From Amphiscolops sp. MND2022 (taxonomy: Eukaryota), in assembly GCA_964187785.1 (NCBI GenBank), contig OZ076409.1, positions 37,574,001-37,638,000 of the forward strand: a DNA stretch of 64,000 nucleotides, given 5' to 3'. The first letter of the stretch is position 1. Each line of letters begins with the position of its first letter. The position numbers and the translations under genes are program-made. Below the pieces are notes generated by a model. It searched no databases and was not told the DNA's origin. It saw nothing but the letters and a program-made list of their open reading frames with translations. Shown here in pieces: positions 1 to 62,728 of the stretch.

Positions 1-2
1 AA

Positions 3-2759
3 ATGAAAGTCATATCGTACAACTCTCGTATACTTAACCCACAAGAACAAAAACTCTCCACACTTGATAGAGAACTCCTTGGTATAGTACACGCACTTCA
101 AATCTATGAATTTCTTATCATAGGTTCTCCACATCCAATACACATTTTCACTGATCACAAACCTTTATTACATTGTTTTACAAAGAAAGGTAATCTCAGC
201 CCTTGTTTCTATAGAGCTCAAATGCAATTGACAAAATTTTCAAAACTCAAAATAATTCACACCCCAGGAAAAAATCTCTCTGTTGCCGATATGTTGAGTC
301 GCTCATTCACAAAAACTGAATTACAACTTAACCAATTAAAACATAAACACCTCCCACCACAAATCGATTTTGCACTTATACAAGATAACACTCTTAAACC
401 TGTACATTACTTAATAAAACATGAAGAAATTTTACCTCATCAAAAACATGACTCTCATCCAATTCTTGCTGATTATGGTACAGATCAATTTTCTATTCGT
501 ATCAATGATAAAGGAAATGACATTATTGTAAAACCCTTACAATCTTTTTCATTCAAATCTGTAACTCCTTTTCAAACCAAATTTAAGACACCTACAAAAA
601 GGAATAACAAAACCCTTCATCAACAATCTCTCTTACTCAATGATACTGACGTTACAAGTGATGACGAAGATCATATTTACACCAGAATTCCAAAACCTGA
701 CTCTTCCTTCTCACAAGATACTACATTACAAACAGAAAATTATTCTACTCTTAAACAACCAAGTCACAACACCTCACAGAAATCAATTTCCGCAATAATT
801 GTACAACCAAATTTACCATCTCTCACACACTGTCAACAAATTATACCTTTTTACGATACATCATTTTTTAAGTACAAAAACTATTTTCAAGGTTTCTTCC
901 TCCCTGATGATTACTCCTTAGACATAAAAACTCTTCAACAACAACAATCTCAAGATCCGGTTCTCAGAACTGTTTATTCTTGGTTACTAAATAATGAAAA
1001 ACCCGAATTTATAACACCTCTTATCACTGGTACTCCATTTCTACATGTATATTACAAAAGATTTTCACAACTTTTCATTGATGAATCCACTAATCTTATT
1101 AGTTTGTATATTACAAACCCCACTGTTAATAACCAATCCTCTACTCCAAATTTTGTACAAGATACTATTCGCATATGCCTACCTTTTAGACTGTTTAAAA
1201 CTGTCTTTAACAAACTTCATGAACATTCTCACACTGGTATGAAAATCACCTACAATACATTCAAACAATATTACTATATTCCATTCCTTGAAAAATGGCT
1301 TTCCATTTTCATCCATGACTGTATTGAATGTCAACGTAATAAGCACTTCAATATGAAAATTCAAACTGCTCCTACACAATCATTTTCAGAACATGCTCCA
1401 TCTTTCAACTATAGAATCTCAATGGACACTAAAGGACCTACTAATCCTCCTTCTCATAACAAATCCTATATACATGTAATAATTGACGCTTTTAGTCACT
1501 TTGTTGTTACAGTACCCATCAAATCAAACAACGCAAAGACTGCTATCAAAACTCTCCTACACCATTGGATTATTAAATTTGGAACACCCATATACCTTGT
1601 CACTGATCGTTGATCAGAATATGTTAACAAAGAAATGGCACACCTTTGTACACTTATGGGAATTCGTCATTCTCCTAGAACAGCTTAATCTCCTTGGACA
1701 AATGGACTTGTTGAAGTACAAAACAGAAATCTTGGTACTCATCTTCGAATGTTCCTACATGACACACCTAAAGATTGGGCATTTCAAGTCCATATGTATG
1801 CTTATGCACATAATTCACAACCACTTTCAGAACTCAATGTTTCACCTCACGAAATTGTTTTCCATACTAGACCCAGAATACCCCTCACATTTGATTTAAA
1901 CCTTAATCGAGATACCTCCAAGACATGTATTTCACGCTATTGCTCTCAACTCCCTGAACACTCTCACTATGATAAATCAGATTTAAACCCATTCTTCTAC
2001 AAAACACTTTCAAAACCCATTCCCCAATGGTTTCTCGCTGTAGAAACTGCTATGTTACAAATTTATTCCACAGTCTACGAAAACACCCTACGAAAAATTA
2101 ATTCACACGCATACATTACAAAAACTTACCACGAAGGTAAACCCCTTCCTACTGGTACCTTTGTTTTAAAACGCAATTTTACACATGTTCACTTTTCAGA
2201 CAAACTCAAACCCCTTCGGATTGGACCATATAAAATTCTTGACAGACTATCAGACGTCACATATGCATTACTTGCACAAGATGGCTCTACAATACACGTT
2301 CATAGAAATCATTTAATCCCATATTACCCTAAAGAACCACTCTTATATCCACATTTGCGTAATTTTATGCGCTTTTCAGACACAACTCAAAACCAAATTC
2401 CACAAATTACCAGATATGCAAACAGTGATTCTTCCCCGTTTAACTCTGATGAATCTTTGTCTGAAGAAGATTCTCAAACATTTATGACACCACCGTCATT
2501 TAGTACATCCAATCAAAATACACCATCTATAACATCCAATGACAAGTCTTTACCTTCCTCAACCAATGACAACTCCTTATATAAACATATAATTAATACC
2601 CCTCACACTAATGTCCCTAGTGACAGATCGAGACACCCTTCTAACAACCAAACAACTTCACTTCCTCCTCTAATTGACAGAACCACAAAAACCACTTATA
2701 AACTACGACAACAACCCAAATTAGATTATAGACTTTTTATTACACCTTCACAACTGTAA
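3..2759 (+). pseudogene. pol: pol C-terminal half: RNase H, long linker, integrase (HHCC, DDE, GPY/F); two in-frame stops
   Basis: RNase H motifs ELLGIVHAL...TDHKPL...VADMLSR; zinc finger HEHSH...CIECQ; catalytic ISMDTKGP, LVTDR*SEY, NGLVE; GPY/F module KLKPLRIGPYKI. ORFs 3..1613 and 1749..2759 share one frame, broken by TGA 1611-1613 and TAA 1686-1688. Confidence 0.93.
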
Positions 2760-2884
2760 TCTAGTCACTCTATCTGTTGGCTTACTCAAAACTAGTCACT
2801 CCGGTTGAATGAATATTGAATGAATGAAATATAACCCATAACAAGTTATCTTAAAGATAACCTGTTGAAAACACTTCAACAATC

Positions 2885-4117
2885 CTGGATCCTCCCTCTG
2901 ATATCTCTCCATCAGCTCCAAGTCTTCCTTCTACACCTGAATCTTCAGTATCAAACACTACAAACTCTAGTAATGTAACTCCTACTACTCCTTCTAAAAG
3001 ACCCAGATCATACATTTCTGAAACCACTTCTTCTTCACTTCTTCACAGACCACCTATAACCGAAATTCCTATAAACACTCGTCCCCAACAAACTCCTATT
3101 AACACTCCTATTATACACATACCAAACCCTGAAAGTGTTGAACAATACGTAACATACAAACACCCTACAGCTATCAAAACTGTTAGACTCCAACCTCAAC
3201 TTAATCTTGTACAAATTCCTGATCCTGAATATACGAAACTACCTCCACTAAAATTACCTTCAGAACTTAGCACTACAGAACTTAGCACTACTTCTTCAAA
3301 ACTTTATCCACCCTTAAAACCTCTTCGAAAACCCTCTACATCACTCTCAAATCTCTTAGACAATAATACTTCTGACTACGCTCCATCACAAGACACAAGC
3401 TCATTTTTTGTACCTAAACATAGATACAATCTTCGTGACCTTCCTTCACGCAGACTTAGTACAGACACTTCCACACTCAATTTTTCCGCTCTTTCTAGCA
3501 ATTCTGCATTACGACTTGTCAGACAACACGCTCAACCATTGTCCTCTGACCCATCATCTTCAGAACTCTTCCAATCTCCTTATTTTACTTCTGGTTTTGA
3601 AACCGCTTCATTACTTTCATCTAACCCACAAACTGCATTTCTATCAGGAGATCTCTTTTCACAAGTAGTAATTCCTACTCCTGTTCCTGCACATATTAGA
3701 CTACCTGAATACTATACTGCAGAACATTCTAGACCTCCAACCCCAAATTTTGCTGATTATCCACTTCGAGTCGATGGTATAACTATCTACGACCCACAAA
3801 ACGATCCTCGATTTCCAATTCTTGCAGAACGTTTTATTAATAACAACGATCTCTTATCTCATAAACGTAAAGAAACAGAACTAAAACGTCTTCAGACACC
3901 AAATTTAGAACTTAAATTTGAAGTCAAGGTCAAATTTCAAGGATTAAATCCTCATCCAATATTTCACGTTTCTAAAATAGAACATAAAACCTCTCCTGCT
4001 CCTTTTGAAGTAGTACATATTGAATTCGAACGCGATCTTAATATACCCACTATCACATATGGCAACATTGTCTTCTGTAACCCATACTCTGGTCTCAAAT
4101 ATAAGACATCCTTTTAA
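2885..4117 (+). CDS. ORF2 of retroelement: ~410-aa Pro/Ser/Thr-rich protein with a putative globular C-terminal domain (candidate matrix/budding protein)
   Basis: The frame of track ORF 3539..4117 is open from 2861 with no ATG. The first plausible start is CTG at 2885 in a strong context (A at -3, G at +4). Contains PSAP (2909-2920), LYPPL (3302-3316) and RYNLR (3422-3436). Confidence 0.7.
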   Translation: MDPPSDISPSAPSLPSTPESSVSNTTNSSNVTPTTPSKRPRSYISETTSSSLLHRPPITEIPINTRPQQTPINTPIIHIPNPESVEQYVTYKHPTAIKTVRLQPQLNLVQIPDPEYTKLPPLKLPSELSTTELSTTSSKLYPPLKPLRKPSTSLSNLLDNNTSDYAPSQDTSSFFVPKHRYNLRDLPSRRLSTDTSTLNFSALSSNSALRLVRQHAQPLSSDPSSSELFQSPYFTSGFETASLLSSNPQTAFLSGDLFSQVVIPTPVPAHIRLPEYYTAEHSRPPTPNFADYPLRVDGITIYDPQNDPRFPILAERFINNNDLLSHKRKETELKRLQTPNLELKFEVKVKFQGLNPHPIFHVSKIEHKTSPAPFEVVHIEFERDLNIPTITYGNIVFCNPYSGLKYKTSF

Positions 4118-6764
4118 ATCCTACACAACCTCTTATATAACAACTATAATTTTCTTACATTTCTTTCACTCTACCTTTTCCATACCTATAGTACTCCCTG
4201 ACACAGAAAACTATCTTCCATCGGATGACCCGAATATTACAAATCTCATGGTTTCTCATTATGATTGTGCAAAACAACACAATCTCCGACAATTTAATCT
4301 ACTTAATGTAAAACAATGCACTGAAGCTCCTTCTGACATTAAACATGCAAGTGTTAAAGCCCGTGTATATGTCCGAGCAAAAGCTAAACGTATCAAAGCT
4401 TTCAAATGTGTTGCTTATGCAAAGAAAGAAAGGAAAATATGCTTTCAAGGATCTGTCAAATACCGTCGTGTTGATCGAACCGTATGGAATCATAATACAT
4501 TACCTCTTCCTGTTACTCTTGATCCGGTAGAATGTAAAAACATTATAAGACATTTAAATGGTACAAATGATAAAATATTGAACAACCTTCACTACAACAA
4601 AACATTTACACTCTTAGAAGACCATTATTTTCAAGAACGTTTAGAACAATATCAAACTCTTTTCACTGTATATCAATTGAACAAAATGTATACAGGTACA
4701 TTTACATTTATGCCTGCTGATAAAAACTGGATATATGACCCTACAAAAAACCCTTGTCATAACTGTCCTGCTCATCATCAATTCGAAGTCAACTTAGTTA
4801 GTTGGCGACTAGAAGTTTCCGAAATAGAACTTACATATGATGACACATCAAATGACATGATAATTGATGGACATACATTACCCTGCTATTTTGCAGATGG
4901 CTTTTGTAAACCCACTACAAAAACTCCTTTTACTCTTGTTTGGTTTAATGATGATTATTGTCTAATTTTTACCCTACAAGACTTTAATGGACGTATGACT
5001 AAAATTGAAGATAGATATTGGATTGAAACAGACTCCTTTGTACATTCTCCACATTCAGTAAAATCTCAAACTGCTTCTGGTATAAAAGGTACAGAACATC
5101 TTTATGTTCATGCTCCCCATACACAACATCCAAATAACCCAAGTCTTTCAAGATTTGAAGTTTTTCCTACAGCACAAACCTTTTGTGGTAAACCAGACCC
5201 TCTCTATTCTACACAATACTCAGACCTTTTTGTTACATACACTGATGGTTTTAATATGCATACAGGACAACCTAATCCTCATTCCATAAGTGATGAGTAT
5301 ATCTCTGGTAAAATAGTATTGGACACTTCAAAAAACAAATTTGTGTTTCCTGCATTAAATGTATCAAACAATTTCGCTACCATTGATTTTGATGCACATA
5401 TAAACACCAAAATTGACTACACTATTAATCATGTTTTTCGATCAATGACAGTACAAGAACTAAATACTCTTCATACAATATGTGAACTAGAACGAAATCA
5501 ACTTCTTACAATACTCGCAATGTCAGTACAAAATCCTCAACTTGCTGGTTTCCTTTTAACCGGTAATAGAAGTAACTTCTTATACGTTGAAGGCTCAACC
5601 GCCTGGCTTTATGACTGTCCTCATTTTTTATCTCCTTTATACAAAGCAGATAGATGCTTTGACCGTATACCCATACATTTTAAAGATACCTTAATGTACG
5701 TTGATCCTATTACAAGACAAACTTCTGATTATGCTACACCAATTACATGCGATAATAATCCACGTAACATTATTGAACTCGACCCTGATTCAGATGATCA
5801 AGACTTTTACATTCTTGGACCTGAACCTATCAAACCAAACCTCCACTAATGTTTACACCCTCACAAATCAAAACTACAATACGCCCTAATACTTTTACAG
5901 CCCAAGATGCTGGTATATATTCAAATGCAGAACTTGATCAATTTTGGAACCGTATTTTATTTTCTAAACACTCTGATTCTACACTTCAATTGCTAGGTAA
6001 AGCTCTTAGTTATTCATTCATTTCATCTAATACTCCAAATTACGATGCAGATTCCCCTCAAGACTCTGGTAATCCTTACAATACATTACGAATAGGACTA
6101 CATAATAAACTTTTGAATTTAACTCCTCTTTTCACACCTACATGGTTCTCTGATGCTTTTATTGCACTCTTTGGATACCCTTGTTACATTCTTACACAAT
6201 GTGGCATATACTTTTCTACATTTCTTTTTGTACAAGCTACTCTTACACTTATTGTTAAACTTTACAAAACAATATCCATTAAATATAATCTTAAAAATAA
6301 TATTACTTTACTTAGTTCTATTGCACATGGTTTTTTTTAATGTTCTTACAGCACGAATGGTCAGTGACCTACATGAGACTCAAAACAAAAAACCCAAAAG
6401 TACACTTTCCAAATCCAAATCTTTAGATAACTTTATTGACACTTCTCCAAATTTAATTAACCATTCTACAGATGTTACTTCCCCTCCACCTTTTTATACC
6501 AAACGATCTAACAAAATTCAATTTCCTAAATTTAACTTCTTTCCGAAACGACACCACAATTCTCACCATAAAACGACTCCACTTCCTTTCTCTTCTATCC
6601 AACATCCCCCACTTCCTAATTATACTCATAAAAACTTTCACTCGAATGACAATCTAACTACTCAACCTGACACTTTAATTAACAATTCTGTCACTTCTAC
6701 TACGGATACGCCAATTAAAATCTATTCACGAATAAACTATCCTTTTCCTCCTCCATCTTCTTGA
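4059..6764 (+). pseudogene. env: env: ~900-aa envelope glycoprotein, chuvirus/Monjiviricetes-like class III fusion protein; two frameshifts
   Basis: ATG 4059 and a hydrophobic signal-like segment (ITTIIFLHFF); motifs HYDC..N..LLNVKQC, CELER..L..LA, C.DRIPI..DP.TR..C and GIYS..EL; TM segment CGIYFSTFLFVQATLTLIV; Pro-rich tail. A 1-nt loss near 5836-5838 and a 1-nt gain in the T-run 6331-6338 join track ORFs 4020..5849, 5849..6340 and 6153..6764. Confidence 0.8.
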
Positions 6765-7013
6765 ACTCTCTCTCAGTTCTTCTATAACTCTCTTCCAGAA
6801 CACTCGCCTACTATTTCTTCACAATTGCTACTCCTCCACCACTTGAAACTCTTGCAGAAATTCATCTTCCTCAGTCCAATAATACTTCTCTCATAATAAC
6901 CATCTTAAAAAACTCTTCAACTAAAGTTGACAAATCCACTCGTTAGTGTAATTTATAGTACTTTAACTTTAAAGTGCTAAGGCCTCTTGGAATAGATAAC
7001 ACTGTGACTGTTG

Positions 7014-8357
7014 ATGCTTTCTCAAACAATGACACAAGCACAAATTGATCTACAAACACAGCTTGAACAAGCAACCCCAACAGATCTTATAACAAGACCT
7101 CTTTCAAATGATTCTCCTGTTCTCTATATTGACACTTCTGACAAAACACCTCCAACTTTTCTTGAACCAATGGAACCCACAAAAGTTGAAAATGAAAATC
7201 CAAAACCTACTCCTCCACAAGATGATACTGATCATACACAATCGACACCACCTCCTCCAAAAAAGCGATATGAAATAATGAAAGATCCAATCTTTCTTTC
7301 ATCACCAATATATCCTCCTTCAATACCTTCAAAAATTTCACTTTGCACGAATCGCGATGATCATTTGATCTCAATTCTTTCCACTGACGATTTCGTCTTC
7401 AAAGCACAACTAACTTCTCTATATATGCATCCTACTGACTACTCATTTCGCTTATATGACAAAAATCAAGACTTCTTCACATCCATTGCTTCCAAAATAA
7501 TGGGTCCATACCAATATTGGCTCGAGAATGGAGTTAAAATTTTCTCTCTCCAATTCAATTTTCTTAGACCTTCTATATACGATCTCAAAACGGATGAATC
7601 TGATCCATCCTTTCTCTCTATAGCACAAAAAGCTTCTCATCATCAGACATATACTAACTTTCTACAATACACGAAACCACAAAATTATATTTTTGTCAAT
7701 TACAAATATACATCACCGTTCACAATGACAAATATGTACACTCTCGATCACTCCTGTATAACAGGCTACCTTCGGAACTATGACCCTATAAAGCAATACT
7801 TCTGTTTGCTTCCATATAACAATACTTCACGTCCACTTATTGTACCTCAAGAATATCTCATACATTACGATGATTTTTTGTTGCCTTGCAACATCCCTAC
7901 TCAAATTGCAAAACCTCTTACTGTTATTAAACACCTCGTTTCTTCTCCACTTGACGATAAAGATAGAACATACTATACAGCACTCTACAAACAAACGTAT
8001 TCCTACAATGAACTTCTCTTTATATCTGCCAAAACTATCTCTTTCATGGTACAAGCTGAACAAAAACCTGAACATAAATCACACACTTCGCCCATCAAAA
8101 ACACTCATGACAAACTTTCCTCTGTATTAACCAATCGAACACTTCGAGACATAACAAATTTACTGGAACCCTATAAACGAAACTCCTCTGAAACACCTAT
8201 CACAACACTCACACATATACTACACTGTTATGACAGAACACACAAACTCCTTCAGACACTCGATTTAGACTCTCAACGCATCACTCAATCATCCCAAGCA
8301 ATCCAATCTGCTTTGGAAACTATAACTACTCTTTTTAATTCAACTAATCTTCATTAA
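7014..8357 (+). CDS. Orphan accessory ORF4 of retroelement (447 aa)
   Basis: Uninterrupted 1.3-kb ORF from ATG 7014, with the same strand and base composition as pol/env. Pro-rich N-terminus with PPPKKR, aromatic-rich middle and helical C-terminus. No family recognised. Confidence 0.75.
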   Translation: MLSQTMTQAQIDLQTQLEQATPTDLITRPLSNDSPVLYIDTSDKTPPTFLEPMEPTKVENENPKPTPPQDDTDHTQSTPPPPKKRYEIMKDPIFLSSPIYPPSIPSKISLCTNRDDHLISILSTDDFVFKAQLTSLYMHPTDYSFRLYDKNQDFFTSIASKIMGPYQYWLENGVKIFSLQFNFLRPSIYDLKTDESDPSFLSIAQKASHHQTYTNFLQYTKPQNYIFVNYKYTSPFTMTNMYTLDHSCITGYLRNYDPIKQYFCLLPYNNTSRPLIVPQEYLIHYDDFLLPCNIPTQIAKPLTVIKHLVSSPLDDKDRTYYTALYKQTYSYNELLFISAKTISFMVQAEQKPEHKSHTSPIKNTHDKLSSVLTNRTLRDITNLLEPYKRNSSETPITTLTHILHCYDRTHKLLQTLDLDSQRITQSSQAIQSALETITTLFNSTNLH

Positions 8358-8766
8358 ACTCCTCTACAGGTAATATAAAGTTTTAAATTTTCTTCTCTGG
8401 TACACTCTATGGTACATCTGTGGCACATTTTACAAGGTATTTGCATTTTTTTAAACAAAAATCCTTATTTTTGAATGAAATCTCAGGACTGTTTTTTAAG
8501 TACACTAATTTTTCCTACAGTACATGTCAAAAAATAACTATTTTTTTACTCAAAACACTACAATACAAGACATACAAGACAATCTAAAATAATACTACAT
8601 ATGGTACATTATAGCACCCATTTTTGTTGTACATCTTTGACTTGATATTGTCATTCTTCTTACACTTCCTTTGTTTTAGAAACATCCATTCTTCCTTCTC
8701 CTTCATCCAAATTCTTTCAGAACATCCCAACTTCTCTTTCTTCGTATTCTTCAAACTCTCGTCATA

Positions 8767-9219
8767 ATGGCTCCAAATGCTGAAACAAACGACATTCTAA
8801 CAATGACTTCAGAATTTTCGAAAGTCCATAGTCTTAAAGCCGCCATATTTCATACCATGGCCTTCAAACTCTCACTTGAGATTCACAAAAACAAAATTAC
8901 GCCAAAATGTCTCATCGCTTTCTTAAAAGTACTCTACAATGTCACGCAAATAAAGAAAAAGAAAATCACTTTCGAGCAATACTCGCGAATCCATCTTCAA
9001 GGACCTAAAATTGCCATTTGTGAAACGGCATCTAATGTTGTTTTCGTCCTCAATTCGTCCTTTACTTCAAAGGATCAGTACTTTCGTGCTGCTATCCAAG
9101 AAGCTACAGATGCCTTTAATAATATGTTGCAAGATTTCGGGTATACTCAACAACTAGAACTTTATGACCCGATACAACATCAACCTCATCCTCCATCGCA
9201 AAACCCTCTATTTCAATAA
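8767..9219 (+). CDS. Orphan accessory ORF5 of retroelement (150 aa)
   Basis: ATG in good context (ATAATGG), intact 150 codons, KKKK basic patch, same strand as the other element ORFs. A pyrimidine tract + AG at ~8664-8679 could be a splice acceptor. Confidence 0.6.
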   Translation: MAPNAETNDILTMTSEFSKVHSLKAAIFHTMAFKLSLEIHKNKITPKCLIAFLKVLYNVTQIKKKKITFEQYSRIHLQGPKIAICETASNVVFVLNSSFTSKDQYFRAAIQEATDAFNNMLQDFGYTQQLELYDPIQHQPHPPSQNPLFQ

Positions 9220-9573
9220 TCTCTAACACAAACTCCTACTTACTTCTATTTCACTCTTTGACTACATTTCGTCTCCAAATCCTTCATCTTCTTTCGATGA
9301 TGCTTCGAAATGTGGTTGATGATTACTTCCAAGAACTCCTACACATGCTGAAACTCTTCACTTCACCCACCCACGATGGTCAACAACATCCATCTACACT
9401 TTGGGTTCATCGACGTTGCCAAAAAGTGTCCTCGTCATCAGTCTTCACACCTCAACTGCTGACTTCGTGAACTGGTCTTCATACTTCAATGGCCAATACA
9501 AATTTCAAACTGAACTGTATAATCACTTATAATCAATATAACCTGTAACCTAATTTAATCAAATCATAATATA

Positions 9574-9690
9574 GACTAGTGCTATATACTCGTATCTAAA
9601 TTTTAGTGCTATATAATCTTATCTAATCGTAGTATACTAGTGCTATATACTCCTATCTAATCTTTAGCGCTATATAATTTTATTTAACCT
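9574..9690 (+). repeat. Short tandem array in the retroelement 3' non-coding region
   Basis: Four TAGYGCTATATA cores arranged as two ~62-bp units. Confidence 0.7.
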
Positions 9691-11334
9691 TAATCTTATC
9701 TAACCATTGTATAATTACCCCCCATTAACCATAATCCTTCCCAAATTCTACCCATAATTATTCTTGTAACCACAATATTATTTACTTCCATTGTATTGTG
9801 TATAGAACTTTAACATTATCTTACATAATTATCCACTTCAAAATACATTTTAATCCCCGTCTTTTTACAGAACACAAGTCCTACTTACAGCACAAGAAAT
9901 TTTCTAAGATTTTTGGACAAAAATTTTTCTTTTACAAAACATGTTTTACAACTTTCCTTTAACCCTCAAAAGCATTCCCAAAAAATTTTTTCAAAATTTT
10001 CTTTCGAACTCTTAAAAATTGTCACTTGTGAAAAATGTCACTTCTAGTTTTCAAATATTTGAAACTTGAAATAGCCAAAGTTTTTTTTTCAACTCTTGCT
10101 TCTGCTCTACTCTTCACTTTTGTTGAAAATGAACTCTCACTCCAACCTTGACTTTTCAAAACTTCTTCACTTTTGGTTCACATACCCGCCAATGTTGGTT
10201 CACAATTCATTGACAACTTCACGCTTTAATTCCTCAACTTGAAAAGTTTTCAATGCTGACTAACTCATGTTGATGAAACAAACTTTTTCAACAAGCCGAT
10301 GGCTGATACGTATGAAAAAGAAACATGAAAGAATAAATAGTTGTCAACAATAACTTCAAAGAACTTGTCAGTCAAAGAAACTGAAAGAACTTGAACCTGT
10401 TTGAACCTTTTTGCACCAATTGAATCGTCTATGACGTAAGAAGTCAAATCGTCTTAGGTTGTTCTCACTCCTTAAGTATGGTACTCTACAAAACGAAACT
10501 CATGCAACTGTAATACAACACATATGAAACAAACCCATGCACATAACAAAAACTTCTAGAACTCCTCAAACTCAAAAGTGCATATATGTAATTTTTATTT
10601 TTCAAATTCCCGGTTGATTGTGATGCCATGATGCATGTCCTCAAAGATTTTATAAATCTGAAATACTCTGAACTTTTAACAGAAGAAAATAGTAAATCTA
10701 ATTGAATCTAGAAACTAATTATTCTAGAAGAAACTTCATTTAATAGATCCTGTATCAAACTTCCCTGTTTCATCCTGTTGCTGTCACATTATTAATTGAT
10801 GCAACCTACCCTAGTTAATAAAATATATCTACTCGGAGAAATTGAGAATTCTTCCTAGCAATCAGTCTTCTTCCAGCACTTCAAGAACTGAGATCTCAGA
10901 AATAGATTGTACTCTGAACTAGCTAGCTACCAAGTATAAGATAAAATATAAGACGACTCTGCTGTTAAAATCTTAGACTTCTTATGTCAGTTCTAACTCG
11001 TATAAAAGAAACAACTACCAAACTTTTTAACAGCTCAAATGAAAGAAATCACAACGCAAAATGATAGCTTTGTTTACATGCAGTCCAAATTATTTGTTTA
11101 AAAAAAATAAGAGTTCAGTTCTTTTCTTACACTTTTGTATTTCTAAAGGTTCAAACAATCCTTAGTTGAAGATGTGATTATGTAACTCAAGCTTAATTTT
11201 AATTACTTAATAGAACATTTGAAAGAATTTAAGATTCTTGTTTAGAAATAAAAACGACTTCGAGGACGCAAATTTTCTTGCGGCCTGCCCATCTTGAGTA
11301 ACCCAAATAACTGAACGCGTTCGGGTTTTTGGGT

Positions 11335-11882
11335 CCCTAGTCGAGATTGCTTGAACTTTTCACATGCTGCATGGAAACACGCAGGCTAATTTTTTACAAA
11401 ACGTGGAAAATTCCTGGAGCCTGCATGGAAGCAATTTGTAGGATTACAATGCAGCCTCCACTATTTGAATTAAAACTGAAAACATTTCCACTTCTTCACC
11501 GCCGCGATCATTTTGTTTTCACGCGTAAGTTTCTCAAGTAAGTACCTTATGTTATCACCGTTAGTCAATTAGCACGCCGAATATGACGCTACTTTGAAAC
11601 TTATAATGTGATTGAAGAGTTTTTGCATTGAAATTGCTGTAAAATTGATGAAGGTATCAGTTGCTTTCAAAATTCGAACGGCGTCTTAATGGAACCTATT
11701 GAACTTTGCGGCGCAGAACTGCCGCTAACTTTAGGATGCATCTTATAGGCAGCTTCATAAAATTCCATCGAATCAGTGAAGTTTTAATGCATGGACGTTT
11801 CTTTGAGAATTTTATAAAATCATGAAAATTTAGCTTGGTAACATGCAAAAACGTGTAAAAAGTTCAAGCAGTTCCAACCAGG
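11335..11882. mobile_element. MITE with imperfect TIRs
   Basis: 5' CCCTAGTCGAGATTGCTTGAACTTTTTCACA versus 3' TGTAAAAAGTTCAAGCAGTTCCAACCAGG. Related fragments at ~44270-44420 and ~60230-60450. Confidence 0.65.
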
Positions 11883-13482
11883 CGATATTATATATAAAGA
11901 ACTAAATGCATCATTGCATTCTTATGAGATAGGTTCTCTTGCATTCTTATCAGAGAGATATTCTTTCAGAGATGTTTTACATCCACGAAACAATGATAAA
12001 GGCTGTATTCTTGACAACCATTCCGTGAATGTAAAACCATTCTTAGTAAGTGAAGACAGTCAATGACTTGAATCATACTTTTTTGAAGGAATGAAATCTT
12101 GGTTTATCATTTTCAAGTCTTGATTCCTGAGGGTTTTCTGAACTCATAGCACCTGCAATGACGTTACAAAGTGATAATCAGTTTCATGTCGTTAAAAGTC
12201 GATTAAAAAATTGACTCAATGAGTAAGCTGGTTGAAACTCAAGTCTTCGGTTTTTCCCAAGTTAAATGCCACGCAAGCAATTTGCTTGAAGGGGCTGAAC
12301 GAAAACAAGCTTGTGGAAATTTGCTGATCCATTAAGATGAAAACCCTCAAGATCTATAATGGTGAAATTTAAAGTCAAGAAGCAACTCCTTATACGGATG
12401 AATATGGGAAGTGCAGAAAACTATGGCGCCAAAGTTGTTAGAGAAACTTAAATTTTCAATTAAACGCATTCAATGATGGTCGCCACATAATTTGGTTCAT
12501 AGATGCAATGTCTATTTTAAAATTTTATCAATTTAAGTCGTATCGTAAAATTTTAACCTCAAATATTCGCTATCTAACTGGGCTGTGATAGTTCGGAGGA
12601 GTAATTTTCACTCTAGATTTTCTTAATCCATGAACTAAAAAGTTCGACTGCAGAAGTTTATTTTCTTATCTCAAATATTCTTAGCGAAAAATCTTCAATA
12701 TAAAATGAATTCAAAATACTGATTGTATGGCTCAGCCGTCCTCTTTCGGAGTACTTCACAGGTCATAAGGTCGGGTTGGCATTCGTTAAAAAACAAATTG
12801 AAGCAATAATATGCAACCCGGGTCGATCCTCCATCATGGATATGATCTTAGTAATATCGTAGAAATATATTATGTAGTGACTTGATAACCTATCATGTAA
12901 TAATTATCAACAATTATAATCAATCAATACAATCGATTAGGACTCACAGAATTGACAGATAGCTGAAATGACTTTCTTAGCTCACTTTTTCTAATGCAGA
13001 AATACTAATTACTGAAAACTCTTTTCTGCACAAAGCCTCAATAAGAGCTAGCTGAACAAATTGTGTGGGCGCTACCTCAAAAATCTGGAACTACTAACAA
13101 AGGAAACAGTGTTCAGTGAGTGGTAATAATTTAACGAGAACCATTTTGCACTAAATTAGAACATAGCAGTAAAAACATTTTTGTGCACATTACTTCATTC
13201 ACGTCGTTCAATTAACTGTCCGTGAACACTAACAAAAGGACGTATCGATCTTTTTTAAAAAAATCAAAATATATACGAGAAAGAAAAATCATTATCTCTC
13301 TTCTATAGAAAAACTCATTGGTATGTGTCAGGTCGTACAAAATGTTTTTTGAAATTTTTCTCCGTGGTCACCAAGATGATTGACGTTACAGGCTATTTTC
13401 CTTTTCACATCTATTAAAACTTTAAAACTGCAAAATTGAAACTCTCAGGTAACTTTACATACTTTCAGAGTCAATTAACATT

Positions 13483-14689: not shown

Positions 14690-17500
14690 ATTTTCCGTCC
14701 ATATTTCATATAGAAAAGGAAAATATTTAAATCAAACGGTTTTTTTTACAAAATGTGTGCCAAGTACCAAATTTATATCCAAGCTAAAGAATTTCACCCA
14801 TAAAATTCAACTTACGTAAAATTTGTATCATACGGTATGTATTTGTAGAGATTTTTTGATTTTTTGAGTATCCCCAAAGCCCCCAGAATAGGCCAAAAAT
14901 GACGACAAAAATAGTAAAAACTTCAAAATTTTCCAATTTTTGACGTTTTTATGCAACTTTTGTCAATTTTTCGATAAATTTCGTGGCTTAGATTGTTGAG
15001 AACGTTCAAAAGAGAAAAATTTCGTTATCCAAGAGGCTTTGTTGAAGGAATAAATGCAATTGTTCAATGGAAAAAAAGCCTCAAATTGAGACGGAAATTG
15101 AAAAAACTTCCAAGAAATTCAGATTTTCAACGTTTTAATGCAATGTTTGTCAAATTTCTGATACACTTGCTAGCTTAGAATGTTCAAAAGGTTCAACAAC
15201 TAGAGAATTCGTTGTCTAAGAGGCTTCTTCGAAGAGATAAACACAATTTGTTTCGAAAAAATGTCTCAGATTCAGACCGAATTTAACAAAAATCCCAAAA
15301 ATATCAGATTTTTGAAAAAATCATGCAATATTTGTCTATTTCTGGAAAAACTTGATGACTTGGAATATTAAAGACGTGCAACAAGGAACAAATTCTTCGA
15401 CTGGGAGGCTTTTGTTCAGTAATAAAAGAACTTTTTTTGATTAAAATATTTAAAATGCGACGAAAAATGGCAAACACTCCCTCAATTTCATGAATCAGAA
15501 CGTTGGAAATGTTCAACAACGAATGAATTCGTTCCCCCAACGAAGTTGTTTGGGGAGAGAAAAGCAGTTTTATAAAAAAAATGCCACAATGTTCAGAAAA
15601 TAGTCAAAAAGTCCAATTTTCGATTTCCAATGCAATTTTTGTCAAATTTTTGACGTTCGCATAGATTAGAACTCTGAAAATGTTCAACAACAATTGAATG
15701 CGTTGTCCAATAGTCTTTTTGGTGGTATAAGTGACTGTCTCTGATGAAAATGAGCTTTATTCTGACACAGAAATTGTCGGAAATCGAAATATTTTCAGTG
15801 TATGTAGCTTCTTCATGTTATTTGAGTACAATTTTTAAAGGTGTTTGTGAGTTAGAAGGTTCAAAACAAAAAAACGAATATTTTGGATATGTAATTTTGT
15901 TGATGAAAAAATTACAGTGTTTTACATCAGAAATATTTCAAAACGACACAAGTGAGTCGAAATTTAAAATAGAAATTTCTAACGTTTTTGTGCAAAAGTC
16001 TGTGAATTTTCGAAACGTATCGTGGGTTAGAATAAAAGAATGGTTCAACAACGAATGCATGTTGGAGTTTGTGGGAGGTAATTGCTGATTTGTGTTCGGA
16101 AAATGTCTAAATCTGAACCAAAAATTGATTAGAATATCGAAAGGTTATTTTTTTGACAACTCTTGTGATTGTTCGTGAAACTACGGGATCCTGAATCTCC
16201 AGACGATCTATCCAGCTTTACAGTATGTCTTTTGAAGTAAAACTTTGTAGTTTACTAGATAGAACATTGTGTCAGAGTGACCCAAATGAGTCTAAAATCC
16301 GAAACTTTTCTGAAAAACGAATTTTATTGGAAAGTTCGTAAATTTCGTATGTTAGAAGAGTGAAAACATTCAACAGGAAACTATCGCGAAATAGAGTAGA
16401 CTTTTTGAATATCAATTGCAGTTACATGTTCGAAAAGACCCTCGAAATGACGCCATTATAACCAAAAATTCAAAAGTTTCCAGAACTTTTGACGTTTTTA
16501 ACCCATTTTTTTGACATTTTGACAGACTAGTAAATGTTTTGAAAAAATAAATGCGAGTTATTAGAAGAAACATGCCTCAATTTCACCCCAAAATATCAAA
16601 ACCCGAAATTTTACAGTTTGTTGTTTTTCCTGCAGTTTGTGAACAATTTTTGATACTTTTTGCAATCAAGAAAATTCAATGCACTGAAAAACGAACAAAC
16701 TAGCTGTACAGTATGCTGTTCTGAAGAGGGAGTTGCAGTATTTAGCTTAAAAATTACTCGAAAACAGCCCTGATGAGTCGGAAGTGAAAAATTTCAAAAT
16801 GAACGTTTCATAGGCAAAGTCCTGAAATTTTTGTGTAATTCACACTGTTGGAAAACGTTCAACTGCGATCGAATGCGTTATTCAGTAGGCCTTTTGGAAG
16901 TCAATTGCAGTTTCACGTAGGATAAGAGTCTCAAAATGACCTCAAAAGTCTGTTGTTTGTCAAATAAGTTAATTCTTATCAAACGTTGTCAAAGTTCCGT
17001 AATTTTCAAAAAATCCAATAGGCATGCAGAACGTTGATAGAGACAAATCACAATTTTGTATGTAAAACGTTCGTCACTTGAAAAAAGTGAAAATTTTTTG
17101 TAAACATTTTGATTAATTTTGTTATTCAAGAACGACTGGATCAGTCATCCAGTAGGCGTTTTTGAAAAGAAATATTCAATTAATTAGAAAAGTTCTTGAA
17201 TGACCGCTAAGGTGTCAAAAAAGAAAAATTTTGCAAATTTTGAAGTTTTTGGCGACTTTTCACAAAATTGAAAAAACTGGTTATGTTTTGGTATACGCAC
17301 ATGCCGACAAAAACAAAAACATGTTTTCGGTGTGTTCTCGAAGTGCTTTCTTCTGAAAAAGGATGTCATTATTCAAAAAGTGTCAAAACTTTAATCATCT
17401 TCTTTGCGTTTTCACAGTGAAATGGCTACTCTTGAGTCCAAAAATAATGTCATTGCTACAACAGTTTGACGAAAAATATCCTGCTGGTCAGCGAGCGTCA
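14690..17500 (+). repeat. Large interspersed non-coding repeat with internal ~180-bp degenerate tandem units
   Basis: Reverse-complement copies at ~32845-35580 and ~38467-41202 (shared end TTTCCGTCCATATTTCATAT and internal GACGCTCGCTGACCAGCAGGATAT). Confidence 0.75.
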
Positions 17501-18580: not shown

Positions 18581-18992
18581 TAAATTAGAGAAAAGTTTGG
18601 GAAACAAGCCGGGACGGACTGAAATCGGTGCCACGCTCAAGCCTCAAAAAACGCAACGTACTTCAAATTCTTTGACAACATGTGTGAAAAAACGCCTCAA
18701 CATCTCACATTTTAAAAAATCAAAAGCAGGATCCTCTGAGATTTACAAAGACTTTTCTTTTTGCAAATATCAGAAAAAAAACAAAGGAAAAACATTTTAG
18801 GTATTAAAAACTTTTCGAAAAACCGCAGTATAAATATGTTCCGTTTCTAACAACTCAGTTCACTTATAGAGAGGTGACTTTGAATCTCATCAAAAAATCC
18901 GACTTTATTGAAAAAGTTCAATAGCAACTGGATTAGTTGTATCCGCATTTTATGTTACATTCGAAACTTTCCAGACTATGCGGGCTATACCT

Positions 18993-19512
18993 AACAAGAC
19001 GGGAACGTCTAAAGTCGGCGCTATATCTAAGGCTCAAAAGGCACAGTTTTTATGATTAAAAGAGCCCTACTATTACTGTCACTCGTTTTTTTTATTTAGG
19101 ACAGACTCGAAGCAACGAACGTTAACGTTCAACTAAAGGAAACTAGATACCAGGGAAACGCATGTAAATTATTTCAAAGGATCCCCCCTTTGGTTTTTTA
19201 CTTTTTAAACGTTACCTACAAGCCCGGACGGGACTAAAGGGTCCCCCCTTTTGATTTTTTTCGGCACTGTGCGACTTTTTTTCGAAATTTTTCTAATGTC
19301 CCCAAAGGGTCCCCCCTTTGAGTTTTTTTGTAATTTTGCTACAGAATGCGTGTTTATAAATCAAAAACGGTCCCCCTTTTACATTTTTCGGCACTGTGCG
19401 ACATTTTTCGAAAGAAGTTTTTTTTCGAAAATTTCAAGTTTTTTCCAAAAAAAATGTTTTGCGTTTTTTGAGCCTTAGATATAGCGCCGACTTGAGACGT
19501 TCCCGTCTTATT
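18993..19512. mobile_element. MITE with ~45-bp TIRs
   Basis: AAGACGGGAACGTCTAAAGTCGGCGCTATATCTAAGGCTCAAAA ... TTTTGAGCCTTAGATATAGCGCCGACTTGAGACGTTCCCGTCTT. Related ends at ~18603, ~23491-23527 and ~31055-31268. Confidence 0.8.
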
Positions 19513-20029
19513 GAACCTCCGCCTCCTCCCTAATAAAATGCAATGCAGTTCGGATATAACGTCAATAACGGAAAAATTGAAAGAAGGAAAACCCTTCAGA
19601 TTCGTGCGGTTTTGTATGTTACGTTTAAAAAGTAAAATGTCGAAGGGTGGACCCGCGTTTCCCAAGTATTCGTTTAGTTGAACAAACTGAACAAAAATTT
19701 TGTCGCATTCAAGATTGTCATGAAGAAAAACAGAAACTGAAAAAACGAATGACTTTAATAGTCGGGCTCTTTTATTATATAAAATGCCTACTAAAAATTA
19801 GGATTGCATAATTTAATTTCTACGAAGAAATGTTGAGATTGATCGCATGCAAATATGTCTAGCGAAACGCAAAGAAAAAAATAGCTTTAAATTTCTTCAT
19901 ACGATATATCTGAAAACGAATGTTCGATGTCCTAGTGTTTTTTTCTCAGGACTTCTGAATCATCACTGCTGGAGGCCTGCATACATGGCAATTTTGGCAA
20001 TTAACAGAGAACCTAAAAAGCTAAATACG

Positions 20030-24330: not shown

Positions 24331-25206
24331 ATGCTATCGTTCAAAACAATTTTGAAGCCTTGAACTGGCTGACTCAAAAGAACAGAGGCTCGATTCGATC
24401 CTCCACCATCAAAATGTTATACTTTTTAAAATGAAATTTTGAAAGTTTTTCGAACTGGCATCTTTAAATTTTTTTTTCATAAGAGGGTAGTTACTATCGA
24501 AATAGTTTTTTGTTTTGATTGTGATTATGTTCGAATTCAGTTTTTAAAAATTCAAAAAATAAAGCTGATCGTTTCCTTAATATTTCTTAGTAAAAAATAC
24601 GTCATGACGTAGCATGAGTAGTAGCACTTATGAAGTTGCACGTCATAAGAACCATGTTTAATGAACAAAGTTTATATCTGGAACTTTGAAGCCGGATTTA
24701 AAATTGAAGGTTTCTGGTTTGGTTTTTAGTTTTTTGTCATAATATTTTCAATGAATTTTCCAGAAAATTTTGGCGGTGGAGGAAAAACAGAAAACAACAT
24801 TCGGCCGTGATAAACTTTTTTTGGTTTTTCTGTTCAAAAACACTGTAATGCCTGCCAATTCTGCTATTTGTTTAAAGTGATGGAAAATTAAAAAGTTATG
24901 CAAAAATCCTTGAACTGTGAAGTTGTGAAATTGTGAATCCAGCATTTTTGATACCATTCCAGGTCAAACAGAGATGCCATCTTTGCAACCTGTATATAAA
25001 GCACACAAATATATTTGAGCACGTGCTTCTTTCATCTTCTCTCGACTGTAGAATGATTCACGAAAAATCACATGCAATAAAATAGCAAGCAGTGTTCTTT
25101 GTCAGTGGCTGTTAAAATGAACTACCAACGAAACGCGATTACTTCACTTTGAATCCACAACAAACATTTGCTCTCGAAACAGAATACTATCAAAAAATCC
25201 AGAGCC

Positions 25207-25547
25207 ATGGAGAGTGGGAAATATTACGGGATTCTCAGTCTTCTTCTTTTCTTCATTTTCGTCGATCTTTTCATCAACTGCTTCATCTTCGTGCTGAGAT
25301 ATCAAAATGTTGTTGTTCTCATAATCTATCTTTTCCAAGACATTTGCTTAGTCTTTTCTCTGATTGTCATCTCTCTGATGTTTGTCAACACTTACATATT
25401 TCAAGCAGGTCTTACTAAAATTCTCCTGAAAAAGTTCAAACTCACGATCTTCATGATTTTACTCTACTTCACCATGACTGTCGTTTTTCATTGCATCGAC
25501 TTGAGTGACAGATGGAAATACCCGGATTACTACTACTGGGATACAAG
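25207..25547 (+). CDS. TMEM138: TMEM138 (ciliary transmembrane protein 138), coding exon 1
   Basis: MESGKYYGILSLLLFFIFVDLFINCF...QDICLVF...NTYIFQAGLTKILLKKFKLTI...RWK matches the TMEM138 pattern (DLFxN, QDI, NTxxFQAGL, KFKxTI). Donor AG|GT at 25547/25548, phase 2. Confidence 0.92.
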
Positions 25548-25745
25548 GTTTGTCATTTTCATCAAAACTTTTTGAAAACCACCTGATTCATTTCATGAAT
25601 CCATTCAAAATCTAATTCATTTAATTCATATTAAAACAAACAATCCAGGCTTTTCCCGGCATCAGCTACTAATTTACTATAATTTTGCAACTTTGTCACA
25701 ACTATTTGCGTCGGTGGGGTTTCACAATCTATTATATATGTGTTG

Positions 25746-61947: not shown

Positions 61948-62212
61948 TTCCCACTTCGTATGATGACATCAAGCTTGCGGCCAAGTTGATACATAGTGAG
62001 ATGTAACGACTCATTTTATTCCCAGTACCCACGTTTTCTGGTTTCTCTATTTCATTTTTCCATCCTCTCTTTCACAAATTCATTCACTTTGAAAGTTGTT
62101 GAATTGATGATTTGATCGGGTTATCAATAAGAGTCTACTAAATTTTCATGGCACGCTTATGTCTGAGAGACTAGACACGGCACTGTGAAGAAGAAGACGA
62201 AGAAGTACTCAC

Positions 62213-62408
62213 GTGTGAGAAGATGAAGTTTGGGGCAGCGATCACCACACCTGAGATCCAGGCCAGGGCGAGAAGCACTCGGGTCTTGTACTTGGAGCGA
62301 TGACTGAACGAGTGTGGCTTCGTCACTGCCAACATGCGGTCGTAACACATCAGAGTGATGGCCACCACACTGGCATGGTTAGTGGCCACGTCCAGGGCAT
62401 TGAACAAC
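62213..62408 (-). CDS. Class A (rhodopsin-like, probably peptide) GPCR exon: TM3, ICL2, TM4; TM1-TM2 exons not found in window
   Basis: LFNALDVATNHASVVAITLMCYDRMLAVTKP...LAWISGVVIAAPNFIF (DRY-type DRM, TM4 W and P). Acceptor TTTGTGTTCAAG, donor CAC|GTGAGT. Confidence 0.9.
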
Positions 62409-62443
62409 CTTGAACACAAAAAGGTAGTTGCAAAAGATACGTA

Positions 62444-62728
62444 CCCAGCGTTTGACATTAAAATCCTTAGTAAGATCTTGACAACATTATGAACGACAAT
62501 AGAAATCCTGCCGAGAAACTCGGGAAGATTTCTAGAAGTCACCAGGGTCCAATGGGAAAACTGAAATGAAAAACTGCCCGGAGAAAAAATCCCGAGACCT
62601 TGTCAAGAAATACAGGAAAGCGGGAAAGTTGCCAAAAAATCCAAGACACCAGGAATCTCGCCAAGATTGCCAAGATAATCGGGAAATAGCCAGTATCTTG
62701 CCAAGATTCTAAAATCTCGAAAGCTGGG
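62444..62728. mobile_element. Small CCC..GGG MITE just upstream of the GPCR acceptor
   Basis: CCCAGCGTTTGACATT / AATCTCGAAAGCTGGG imperfect TIR; GCCAAGAT repeats. Confidence 0.55.

Follow-up and report, generated by a model that had tools for sequence, protein, structure and literature searches.

An env-bearing Ty3/Gypsy element with an unusually large gene set and a probably CUG-initiated reading frame between pol and env in the genome of Amphiscolops sp.

The stretch analysed here (the window: 64,000 nucleotides of Amphiscolops sp. MND2022, assembly GCA_964187785.1, contig OZ076409.1, positions 37,574,001 to 37,638,000 of the forward strand) opens with the 3' 11 kb of a Ty3/Gypsy element of 17,977 bp. 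An earlier note, made from the letters of the window alone, had described a Gypsy Pol end followed by four further ORFs on the same strand in a G-poor block. Indeed, all five plus-strand frames were recovered at the sizes it gave, and GC skew lies between -0.19 and -0.61 in each 500-nt bin up to 11000 and is about zero beyond. The 3' LTR (10619–11037, plus strand; 419 bp, TG..CA) is 98.8% identical to the 5' LTR, found at 2061–2479 of L011, the locus sequence reaching upstream of the window. It is followed by the target-site duplication AATG (11038–11041), equal to the four bases preceding the 5' LTR; such a 4-bp duplication is present in 5 of the 6 checked copies of the window's own subfamily, A. 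The element ends at 11037, thus 8.3 kb of it lie 3' of pol, not the roughly 8.5 kb up to 11290 proposed in the note. A primer-binding site starting with TGG lies 2–3 nt past the 5' LTR in subfamilies A, B and C. Metaviridae have a polypurine tract of about 10 A/G before the 3' LTR (ICTV profile, PMC7879559). No canonical tract was found there in A–D; instead, the plus-strand priming site (10601–10618, plus strand) is a conserved motif containing pyrimidines, and a motif of the same type, with a CCCGG-type core, precedes the 3' LTR in all four subfamilies. In our opinion the polypurine tract is a canonical but not a strictly defining feature of the family, and the LTR pairs here are intact.

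The 3' part of gag-pol (1–2759, plus strand; frame 3–2759) encodes RNase H, a long bridge and an integrase with H2C2, core and SH3/GPY-F-type tail, and matches PF17917 (1.7e-13), PF17921 (2e-09), PF00665 and PF24626 in Pfam. A search of the upstream flank had been suggested, and gag, the protease motif, RT and the 5' LTR are all found there; the three coding parts were located in L011 and in sister copies. They belong to a single fused gag-pol ORF, which spans about 2,700 codons and has a large additional region at its N-terminus; the order is PF03732 (gag), an LLDSGA motif (recognized by eye), PF00078, PF17917/9, PF17921 and PF00665. In a PDB sequence search the RT is closest to the 4ol8 RT/RNase H (3e-38) and to Ty3 Gag-Pol (7.6e-38); a pararetrovirus-type enzymatic polyprotein (6e-28), foamy Pol (1.5e-18) and other retroviral RTs (E at least 2e-7) come next. 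In the Pfam-only view gag-pol has one RNase H, and a bridge of 300 aa precedes the integrase. Two small membrane ORFs (39–45 aa and 78–79 aa) precede gag, both lacking an N-terminal MG. A +1 frame inside gag, open over 202–229 codons in A–D, was considered as a gene and rejected (pN 0.29, pS 0.26). Readthrough or frameshifting from pol into ORF2 is excluded by gaps of 61–251 nt that contain stops.

The genome holds at least 94 near-identical copies among its best matches. Four subfamilies were distinguished, A, B, C and D, which come from one genome and are not independent samples. The order pol-ORF2-env-ORF4-ORF5 is found in 5/5 fully read A sister copies and recurs in B, C, D and their variants; the exceptions are one C copy cut within ORF4 and one D-type stretch that is inverted with its order unchanged. 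For the pairs A-B, C-C2 and D-D2, dN/dS is 0.07–0.26 across ORF2, env, ORF4 and ORF5, similar to pol (0.13–0.16), and every ORF from pol to ORF5 evolves under purifying selection. The view that the accessory ORFs are conserved is upheld by this selection and by the shared order. The window copy itself is dead. We found the four lesions counted earlier, two in-frame integrase stops (1611–1613 and 1686–1688) and two env frame changes (near 5825–5849 and near 6340), and two further breaks in gag-pol upstream of the window, in L011. Its LTRs agree with recent inactivation, as had been proposed, and the family is young and recently amplified in this animal genome: of the 9 other copies whose two LTRs were compared, 8 have pairs that are 99.3–100% identical. 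A sequencing run of unknown kind gave low-depth contigs 80–99% alike, and no usable splice joints were seen in them.

The env gene (4059–6764, plus strand), about 900 codons in three pieces in the window, encodes a Monjiviricetes-type fusion glycoprotein (PF24664, 3.5e-18; 1.4e-23 in P0002, a 901-aa database relative). It has an N-terminal hydrophobic segment, conserved cysteines, a C-terminal membrane segment and a tail with PPxY (4/4 env tails). A hydropathy threshold of KD 1.6 is passed by the N-terminal segment in A, B and D and by the C-terminal one in A, the rest falling just below. Given PF24664 and what is reported in the available part of PMC7642597, the protein appears to be a class III, gB-like fusogen. 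A baculovirus-F-like env, which the earlier note mentioned for insect errantiviruses, is not what we see: no match to that family was obtained at E<=1, and the furin site R-x-[KR]-R occurs in none of four env proteins. Identity is 54–84% between the four subfamilies and about 21–30% to the nearest outside relatives; dN/dS is 0.08–0.12, measured over saturating divergence. IMG/VR scans with env gave no relative, and looking up the clusters of 10 distant env proteins returned no names. Among 26 A copies, picked for good ORF4, env is broken in 12, so that many of them spread or survive without an intact env.

Between pol and env lies ORF2 (2885–4117, plus strand). Its size agrees with the roughly 410 aa of the earlier note, but its start cannot be an ATG, since there is no in-frame ATG. 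The stop-to-stop frame (2861–4117) has 418 aa, and 410 aa remain when counted from a CUG at 2885; across subfamilies the length is 410–446 aa. No methionine occurs in any of the 22 normal-length frames among 26 A copies, nor in any B, C or D copy read, against a Met share of 0.7–2.1% in the other ORFs. At the aligned N-terminus a CTG with A at -3 and G at +4 is present in 13/13 copies from A–D, and in 26/26 A copies; CTG accounts for 14 of 645 Leu codons, hence a rare codon occupies an invariant position. Out-of-frame AUGs are avoided as well: NAT codons are used in 7/27 cases before G as against 165/254 before other bases (Fisher test, p=1.2e-4), the opposite of env, ORF4 and pol, where NAT before G is favoured (0.73–0.84). 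In two D variants the stretch from the CUG to the env AUG, 1348 and 1437 nt long, is free of AUG, and in the window the two AUGs of this interval are each stopped within 1–2 codons. The CUG start together with AUG avoidance is the pattern expected of a bicistronic ORF2-env RNA translated by leaky scanning, and we regard such an arrangement as probable. The gap between pol and ORF2 (2760–2884, plus strand), where three AUGs open uORFs of 4–5 codons, likely holds the 5' end or the splice acceptor of this RNA.

The N-terminal part of the ORF2 protein is disordered and rich in Pro, Ser and Thr, with PSAP in 4 of 6 ORF2s (absent from D) and a LYPxL-type motif in all six; such short motifs readily arise in Pro-rich sequence. 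The C-terminal domain that follows, about 140 aa long, is folded and beta-rich (AF2 pLDDT 71, pTM 0.54); for ORF2, dN/dS is 0.10–0.18. We propose ORF2 as a candidate matrix-like budding adaptor. No known family or fold was matched: the model of the C-terminal domain gave nothing at E<=0.001 against BFVD and PDB, and against 48,161 chains the best Z was 3.2 (rmsd 4.1, 70 aligned), no matrix fold being matched. Such a failure demonstrates neither a new fold nor the absence of a matrix fold. An atlas assignment of this domain to DUF5696 (0.92) was rejected for low recognition and a bacterial family. Paralogy of the ORF2 C-terminal domain or of ORF4 to the gag N-domain received a probability of 0.2–0.3% and was likewise rejected.

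ORF4 (7014–8357, plus strand; 447 aa), with a conserved core and a C-terminal helical segment, is open in 92 of the 94 best genome matches and 35–70% identical in subfamilies B–D, with dN/dS 0.07–0.15. Pfam, PHROG and PDB gave no family for it and the atlas nothing, and its structure model (pLDDT 39) is unusable. Its motifs resemble by eye those of the post-env ORFs of L081, L082 and L085, but we do not claim homology because hhalign gives a probability of 0.8%. ORF5 (8767–9219, plus strand; 150 aa), preceded by an acceptor-like TTTTAG common to subfamily B, is 63% identical in B (A-B pair: pS 0.82, pN 0.26) and matches no known family or fold. The ORFs of C and D at this place are at most candidate homologues of it, and ORF5 is to be read as a positional label. 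One weak match to phrog_13579 (1e-4) was rejected, as it is absent with the ORF5 of C or D. In the 3' non-coding region (9220–10600, plus strand), which has a short tandem array at 9572–9713, no small ORF is common to the subfamilies.

How could these genes work together? The reading we prefer, with a probability of roughly 0.6, is that of an env-bearing Gypsy of about 18 kb with a leaky-scanned ORF2-env RNA and ORF2 as budding adaptor. The element replicates by tRNA-primed reverse transcription and integrase-mediated insertion, as its domains, LTRs, primer-binding site and 4-bp duplications show. The full-length RNA would yield gag-pol after ribosomes pass the two small membrane ORFs in weak context, and a shorter bicistronic RNA would start within the pol-ORF2 gap. 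A minority of ribosomes would initiate ORF2 at the CUG while the others scan 1.2–1.4 kb of AUG-purged sequence to env, and this split would set the ratio of ORF2 to Env. As a matrix-like adaptor, ORF2 would recruit ESCRT factors through PSAP and LYPxL, together with the PPxY of the env tail, and capsids would bud carrying the class III fusogen and move from cell to cell, for example from soma to germline. For this last part, from adaptor to passage between cells, we see about even odds. ORF4 and ORF5 each begin with an AUG and are probably made from separate RNAs; they are accessory proteins under selection, for which RNA handling or countering of host defence seems the most plausible, if weakly founded, role. 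Certain observations count against this reading. In A and B the env start codon, with C at -3, lies in only moderate context, and an internal AUG carrying A at -3 occurs in one D copy; a metagenome relative, L081, has env and downstream ORFs without ORF2.

It is possible, though in our opinion improbable, that splicing supplies the ORF2 start from an upstream exon (a leader small ORF, the gag start, or a trans-spliced leader whose last codon is AUG), the CTG being a plain Leu codon and env being made from a separate spliced RNA. Splicing is the usual retroviral route to env (PMC4402516, as far as its available text goes), and each subfamily has an acceptor-like YAG between the last upstream AUG and the CTG. 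However, the candidate in A varies (TTAAAG in 13, TTACAG in 8, TTCAAG in 4 and none in 1 of 26 copies), the LTR-leaders of A, B and D lack a GTRAG donor, and an invariant rare codon in Kozak context and the purging of out-of-frame AUGs are left unexplained. We find it about equally improbable that ORF2 starts at the CUG while env is reached by termination-reinitiation or has an internal promoter to itself. Only 1–2 nt separate the ORF2 stop from the env AUG in C and D, which fits stop-start reinitiation too, and the pol-env spacer of Oikopleura Tor4b contains an env promoter, according to the part of PMC4402516 available, with Tor3b/4b as the model. But the stop-start distance varies, with a 59-nt overlap in A and B and a 30-nt gap in C2, and neither route needs AUG avoidance across all of ORF2.

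A further objection concerns function: the gene set could be selected for intracellular movement, direct cell contact or counter-defence, with no free enveloped particle and ORF2 not a budding adaptor. ORF2 and ORF4 indeed lack a fold match, young copies frequently carry a broken env, and Chary and Hayashi state that how env acts is understood only in Drosophila (PMC13524379). Against it stand the env dN/dS, conserved cysteines, membrane anchor and PPxY, and the translational coupling of ORF2 with env, which suggests a shared job; we consider this objection unlikely to hold. That ORF2–ORF5 are nested insertions, captured host genes or shadow frames has in effect been refuted. G-poor DNA does yield long open frames, as the unselected 200-codon +1 frame of gag in four subfamilies illustrates, but the four ORFs keep one order within an LTR pair in four subfamilies, have dN/dS far below 1 and no introns, and match no host family. 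None of the outcomes named beforehand as fatal for them (a lost order, host genes or insertions, an already described layout) was encountered.

Is the lineage undescribed, as was thought possible? Not as a kind, since Gypsy elements whose env is gB-like and of class III have been described widely across invertebrates (Chary and Hayashi 2026, PMC13524379, in the part available). Our assignment to Metaviridae rests on the LTR pair with its duplication, gag followed by PR-RT-RH-IN, an RT closest to Ty3/Gypsy, and the primer-binding site. With env 3' of pol, carrying signal segment, ectodomain and anchor, the element agrees with gB-type env-carrying Ty3/gypsy elements as defined in the accessible portion of that paper. 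The F-type env and furin site of insect errantiviruses are missing, Pfam finds only Ty3/Gypsy-type families in gag-pol and none that would indicate Belpaoviridae or Anakin. From Retroviridae, lokiretroviruses and Odin, which are recognized by a tether with a second RNase H and a class I env, the element is set apart only tentatively, by the single RNase H that Pfam gives and by an env that is not of class I. Troyka, with CG..CG termini, a 3-bp duplication and no env (PMC12440569, available text), was rejected for an element with TG..CA, 4 bp and env.

With the HSV/gB-type 'ancient errantiviruses' of PMC13524379 our element shares Ty3/gypsy pol, gag-pol-env order, a class III-type env with signal, ectodomain cysteines and anchor and no need of a furin site, multicopy and young families, and invertebrate hosts. 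By their description those elements have three ORFs, and 'accessory', 'non-AUG' and 'CUG' occur 0 times in the text available, while here there are 18 kb, a fused gag-pol, an ORF with a probable CUG start in the pol-env interval, a pair of ORFs 3' of env and another pair of small ones before gag. What is new relative to described elements is the Met-free, CUG-opened, AUG-purged ORF2; in the literature covered, which excludes subscription papers and Repbase, we found no account of the five-ORF layout or of a CUG-started ORF in Gypsy elements. Oikopleura Tor3b/Tor4b (PMC4402516) are likewise marine-type Gypsy elements with env, a pol-env spacer and an env RNA independent of the LTR start; by description, in the part available, no ORF is reported in that spacer, and Tor4b clusters with F-type env elements (PMC13524379, same restriction), unlike ours. 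Anakin elements (PMC7642597, PMC10084718, available parts) also join an LTR element to a Jingchuvirales-type, gB-like chuvirus glycoprotein, but with BEL/Pao pol and in mosquitoes, where ours has a Ty3-like pol; a 2023 paper among these sources gives no clear Gypsy capture of that glycoprotein. Leaky scanning through AUG-free ORFs is known from RTBV and badnaviruses (PMC5902531, available text), where an upstream ORF with a non-AUG start likewise leaves the downstream gene within reach; those are plant pararetroviruses with a 900-nt scan to a polyprotein, whereas here 1.2–1.4 kb would be scanned to env in an animal LTR element.

Elements of the gB-type env Gypsy kind are annotated as gag-pol-env only (PMC13524379, available text). 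ORF2 is a candidate for the missing part in how capsids meet the envelope; gene callers that rely on AUG would skip it, and CUG with AUG purging gives a rule for screening the pol-env spacers of the 1,512 catalogued elements. With this family, Metaviridae are seen to have developed accessory-gene complexity of the retrovirus type. We hold it only as a tentative, rather doubtful extension that this is a distinct complex invertebrate retrovirus lineage of as many as seven genes, that its class III fusogen and a CUG-initiated, late-domain, new-fold matrix-like protein come from one leaky-scanned RNA, comparable to the matrix-glycoprotein module of negative-strand RNA viruses, and that enveloped particles are still made in the host. 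With four subfamilies and no fewer than 94 near-identical copies present in a single genome, expression and protein tests in host tissue are feasible.

Two smaller likenesses may be added. L081 (metagenome contig JAAUYE010140917.1) has the same domain order, with 48% identity in RT-RNase H and about 28% in env, and likewise has ORFs after env, three in number; it differs in its 13 kb, a short separate gag and no long ORF between pol and env. The small ORFs before gag recall sORF1 and sORF2 of the Drosophila MDG1 group (PMC11952523, available text), also two in a Gypsy element and one with a membrane segment; that group lacks env and its sORF2 has myristoylation and polybasic motifs, whereas our element bears env and its two ORFs are without MG.

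The earlier note took the first 11 kb of the window for the end of an enveloped Gypsy-like virus, possibly of an undescribed kind. This interpretation stands in part: accessory ORFs do belong to one selected element, but the kind itself is already known, because gB-type envelopes are widespread in the available part of the catalogue of 1,512 env-bearing Ty3/gypsy elements by Chary and Hayashi (PMC13524379). What is new is the accessory set, together with a putatively CUG-started, AUG-purged ORF2 coupled to env. The accessible text of that catalogue nowhere mentions accessory ORFs, non-AUG or CUG, although its figure supplements may hold related elements, and the present family is set apart from its elements by text description, not by sequences. 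No account of a pol-ORF2-env-ORF4-ORF5 layout was found in the literature searched. Anakin is a BEL/Pao element, whereas ours is of Ty3/Gypsy type. As far as the accessible parts of their descriptions go, Troyka has other termini and no env, whereas our element has TG..CA ends and an env; elements of rotifers add a single ORF3 (PMC5408684) rather than several accessory ORFs; and MDG1-group sORFs sit in env-less elements, unlike the leader ORFs described below.

All five same-strand frames claimed for the window were found, on the + strand, at their sizes (pol end to 2759, ORF2 CUG at 2885, env 4059-6764, ORF4 7014-8357, ORF5 8767-9219). The G-poor block that holds them is indeed visible as a negative GC skew (-0.19 to -0.61) that stops near 11000, and of the four lesions, two are in-frame stops within integrase and two are env frameshifts. 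The assignment of Pol to Ty3/Gypsy is borne out by RNase H and integrase domains of that type (Pfam) and by RT-RNase H, to which Ty3 is nearest among solved structures. Gag, protease motif, RT and 5' LTR, for which the note had suggested retrieving the upstream flank, were recovered from that flank (locus L011) and sister copies. The 5' LTR (L011:2061-2479) is 98.8% identical to the 3' LTR (window 10619-11037, TG..CA ends); the flank has a primer site and a 4-bp duplication, the latter present in 5 of 6 copies checked of A, the window's subfamily. The full element is 17,977 bp long. Its gag-pol is a single ORF of about 2,730 codons, which encodes, in order, a conserved 270-aa N-domain, a low-complexity linker, a Retrotrans_gag domain, a Cys/His knuckle, an Arg/Ser-rich stretch, a protease motif, RT, RNase H, a 300-aa bridge and integrase. 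The N-domain, ahead of the capsid domain (L011:3593-4400; L013:3811-4710 in another copy), is 38-61% identical across subfamilies and has no Pfam or PHROG match. A polypurine tract was looked for before the 3' LTR and found in none of the four subfamilies; all of them instead have a conserved motif of TTTCAAA(A/T)(C/T)CCGG type (CCCGG-type) at this place (window 10601-10618). A similar stretch, CCGGTTGA, is also present downstream of pol, at around 2801, and is confined to subfamily A. The polypurine tract excepted, the element agrees with the Metaviridae criteria, and its sequence suggests that it would work like an enveloped errantivirus.

Copy numbers are lower bounds, since copies were picked by score. 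The DNA search gave at least 40 copies, 97-100% identical (best-scoring 40 of 3,190 candidates), and the ORF4 search at least 94, 98-100% identical (best 94 of 8,638), 92 of the 94 free of stops. Database env proteins 84%, 62% and 54% identical, each with many copies in the same genome, define subfamilies B, C and D, with RT-RNase H identities to A of 94%, 78% and 74%; the gene order recurs in A-D. Family copies often lie nested, tandem or inverted beside one another (L032:496-1002; L033:9241-9999; L037:9163-9999; L046-L047). Of nine other copies in which both LTRs were compared, eight have LTR pairs 99.3-100% identical; the ninth pair stands at 95%, owing to a 20-bp gap. Among 26 A copies chosen for good ORF4, 22 have an ORF2 of normal length, 25 an open ORF5 and 14 an env that clears a threshold of 905 codons, including one whose env frame may be fused with ORF2. 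The per-ORF dN/dS the note had proposed (Nei-Gojobori; A-B, C-C2 and D-D2, the last two being pairs with variants) is 0.18, 0.13 and 0.10 for ORF2, 0.12, 0.09 and 0.08 for env, 0.15, 0.10 and 0.07 for ORF4, and 0.13, 0.15 and 0.16 for the pol end; ORF5 is saturated in A-B, with 0.10 and 0.26 in the others. In all four subfamilies a +1 frame stays open for 200 codons across the Arg/Ser-rich nucleocapsid part of gag (L013:6341-6949). It was rejected as a gene and serves as a control, its pN of 0.29 against pS of 0.26 being that expected without selection.

Every normal-frame ORF2 read, in all subfamilies, lacks Met, which makes up 0.7-2.1% of the other ORFs. A CTG with A at -3 and G at +4 stands at the aligned ORF2 N-terminus in 13 of 13 copies printed, the remaining flanks having diverged, and is kept in 26 of 26 A copies, while CTG is rare in the element's ORFs (14 of 645 Leu codons). 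It is the sole near-cognate codon in that context within the first 110 ORF2 codons of A, B and D; C has one more, an ATT upstream. Out-of-frame AUG is likewise purged from ORF2. NAT makes up 7 of 27 NAY codons before G and 165 of 254 before other bases (p=1.2e-4, pooled over four subfamily representatives that are not independent), and the trend is opposite in env (144/172 before G), ORF4 (60/73) and pol (208/283). From the CUG to the env AUG, a span of 1,174-1,437 nt, seven copies have 2, 3, 2, 1, 1, 0 and 0 AUGs. The same pattern, a non-AUG start and AUG avoidance ahead of the next gene, is described for RTBV and badnaviruses, where it allows ribosomes to scan onward (PMC5902531, available part).

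Reading from pol into ORF2 is ruled out by gaps of 61-251 nt, hence a shorter RNA is needed. Such an RNA would carry ORF2 and env; some ribosomes would start at the CUG and others scan on to the env AUG. Acceptor-like sites precede the ORF2 CUG and ORF5, and a search of the A, B and D leaders gave no strong splice donor; the Oikopleura Tor elements are a precedent for an internal promoter as the RNA source (PMC4402516, in part). Env may also be made otherwise than by leaky scanning: in A and B the context of its AUG is moderate, an AUG of fair context lies between CUG and env in one D copy, and the ORF2 stop adjoins the env start in C and D. Against these points stands the purging of AUG from ORF2.

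The window's env piece matches PF24664 Monjiviricetes_fusion (Pfam, 3.5e-18), as do 20 of 20 env relatives scanned. Env has an N-terminal hydrophobic segment, a membrane segment and conserved cysteines, the latter common to 19 outside relatives at 21-30% identity; no furin motif was found in it. Together with the available part of PMC7642597, the PF24664 match points to a class III, gB-like fold. ORF2 is disordered over two thirds, followed by a five-strand domain (pLDDT 71). It carries, at aligned places, PSAP in A, B, C and C2 (missing from D and D2) and an LYPxL-type motif in all six ORF2s, and the env tail has PPxY in all four subfamilies; we take these short motifs to be ESCRT/NEDD4 late domains. 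Because ORF2 has PSAP and LYPxL-type motifs and gag-pol shows no P[TS]AP (first 2,063 aa of A, first 2,494 aa of D), we infer that ORF2 is a candidate matrix-like budding adaptor, perhaps made at a fixed low ratio to Env. ORF2, ORF4 and ORF5 gave nothing above the Pfam cut-off, and no family match was found for ORF4 and ORF5. The ORF5 of C and D is equated with that of A by position only, since identity is 16-22% with no BLASTP match. Upstream of gag and outside the window, A has two small hydrophobic ORFs of 40 aa (L011:3202-3324) and 79 aa (L011:3344-3583), with weak start contexts; B and D retain both, and pN is lower than pS (A-B 0.26/0.52 and 0.42/0.67), while C has a 37-aa hydrophobic ORF at that position. 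They are candidates for membrane or FAST-like proteins.

Seven env relatives were found among 14 pattern matches in a scan of JGI-hosted metagenome contigs. One, L081 (JAAUYE010140917.1), is a Gypsy element of 13 kb. It has gag, pol (RT-RNase H 48% identical to A), env and three further ORFs after env; it lacks ORF2, and its short gag is without the 270-aa N-domain. In an unrooted RT-RNase H tree of 17 rows, none of them a named reference element, A-D group on a single long branch with full support, separate from L081 and its database relatives. A frame of at least 160 aa directly follows env at 5 of 7 metagenome loci, the other two being too short to show one. Those at L081:9651-10754 and 11157-12092, L082:2541-3137 and L085:2318-4060 have a common small domain and then a coiled coil, duplicated in L081; by sequence they are a putative second accessory family of the lineage. 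At L084:361-5738 and L083:3-3356, env relatives have unknown-family ORFs on either side and no RT in the contig; these may represent either other elements or segments resembling those of RNA viruses.

The rest of the window (G000:C1:37574001-37638000 of a 1.07-Gb genome) holds host exons of TMEM138 (25153-25575, +) and a rhodopsin-family receptor (GPCR; 62171-62602, -), genes that mark the host as an animal. At 14935-16950 and 18600-19780 the flank has a degenerate 185-bp tandem array and an inverted-repeat (MITE-like) element. Identical 142-aa frames at 34560-34988 and 40182-40610, 5.6 kb apart, suggest a recent local duplication.
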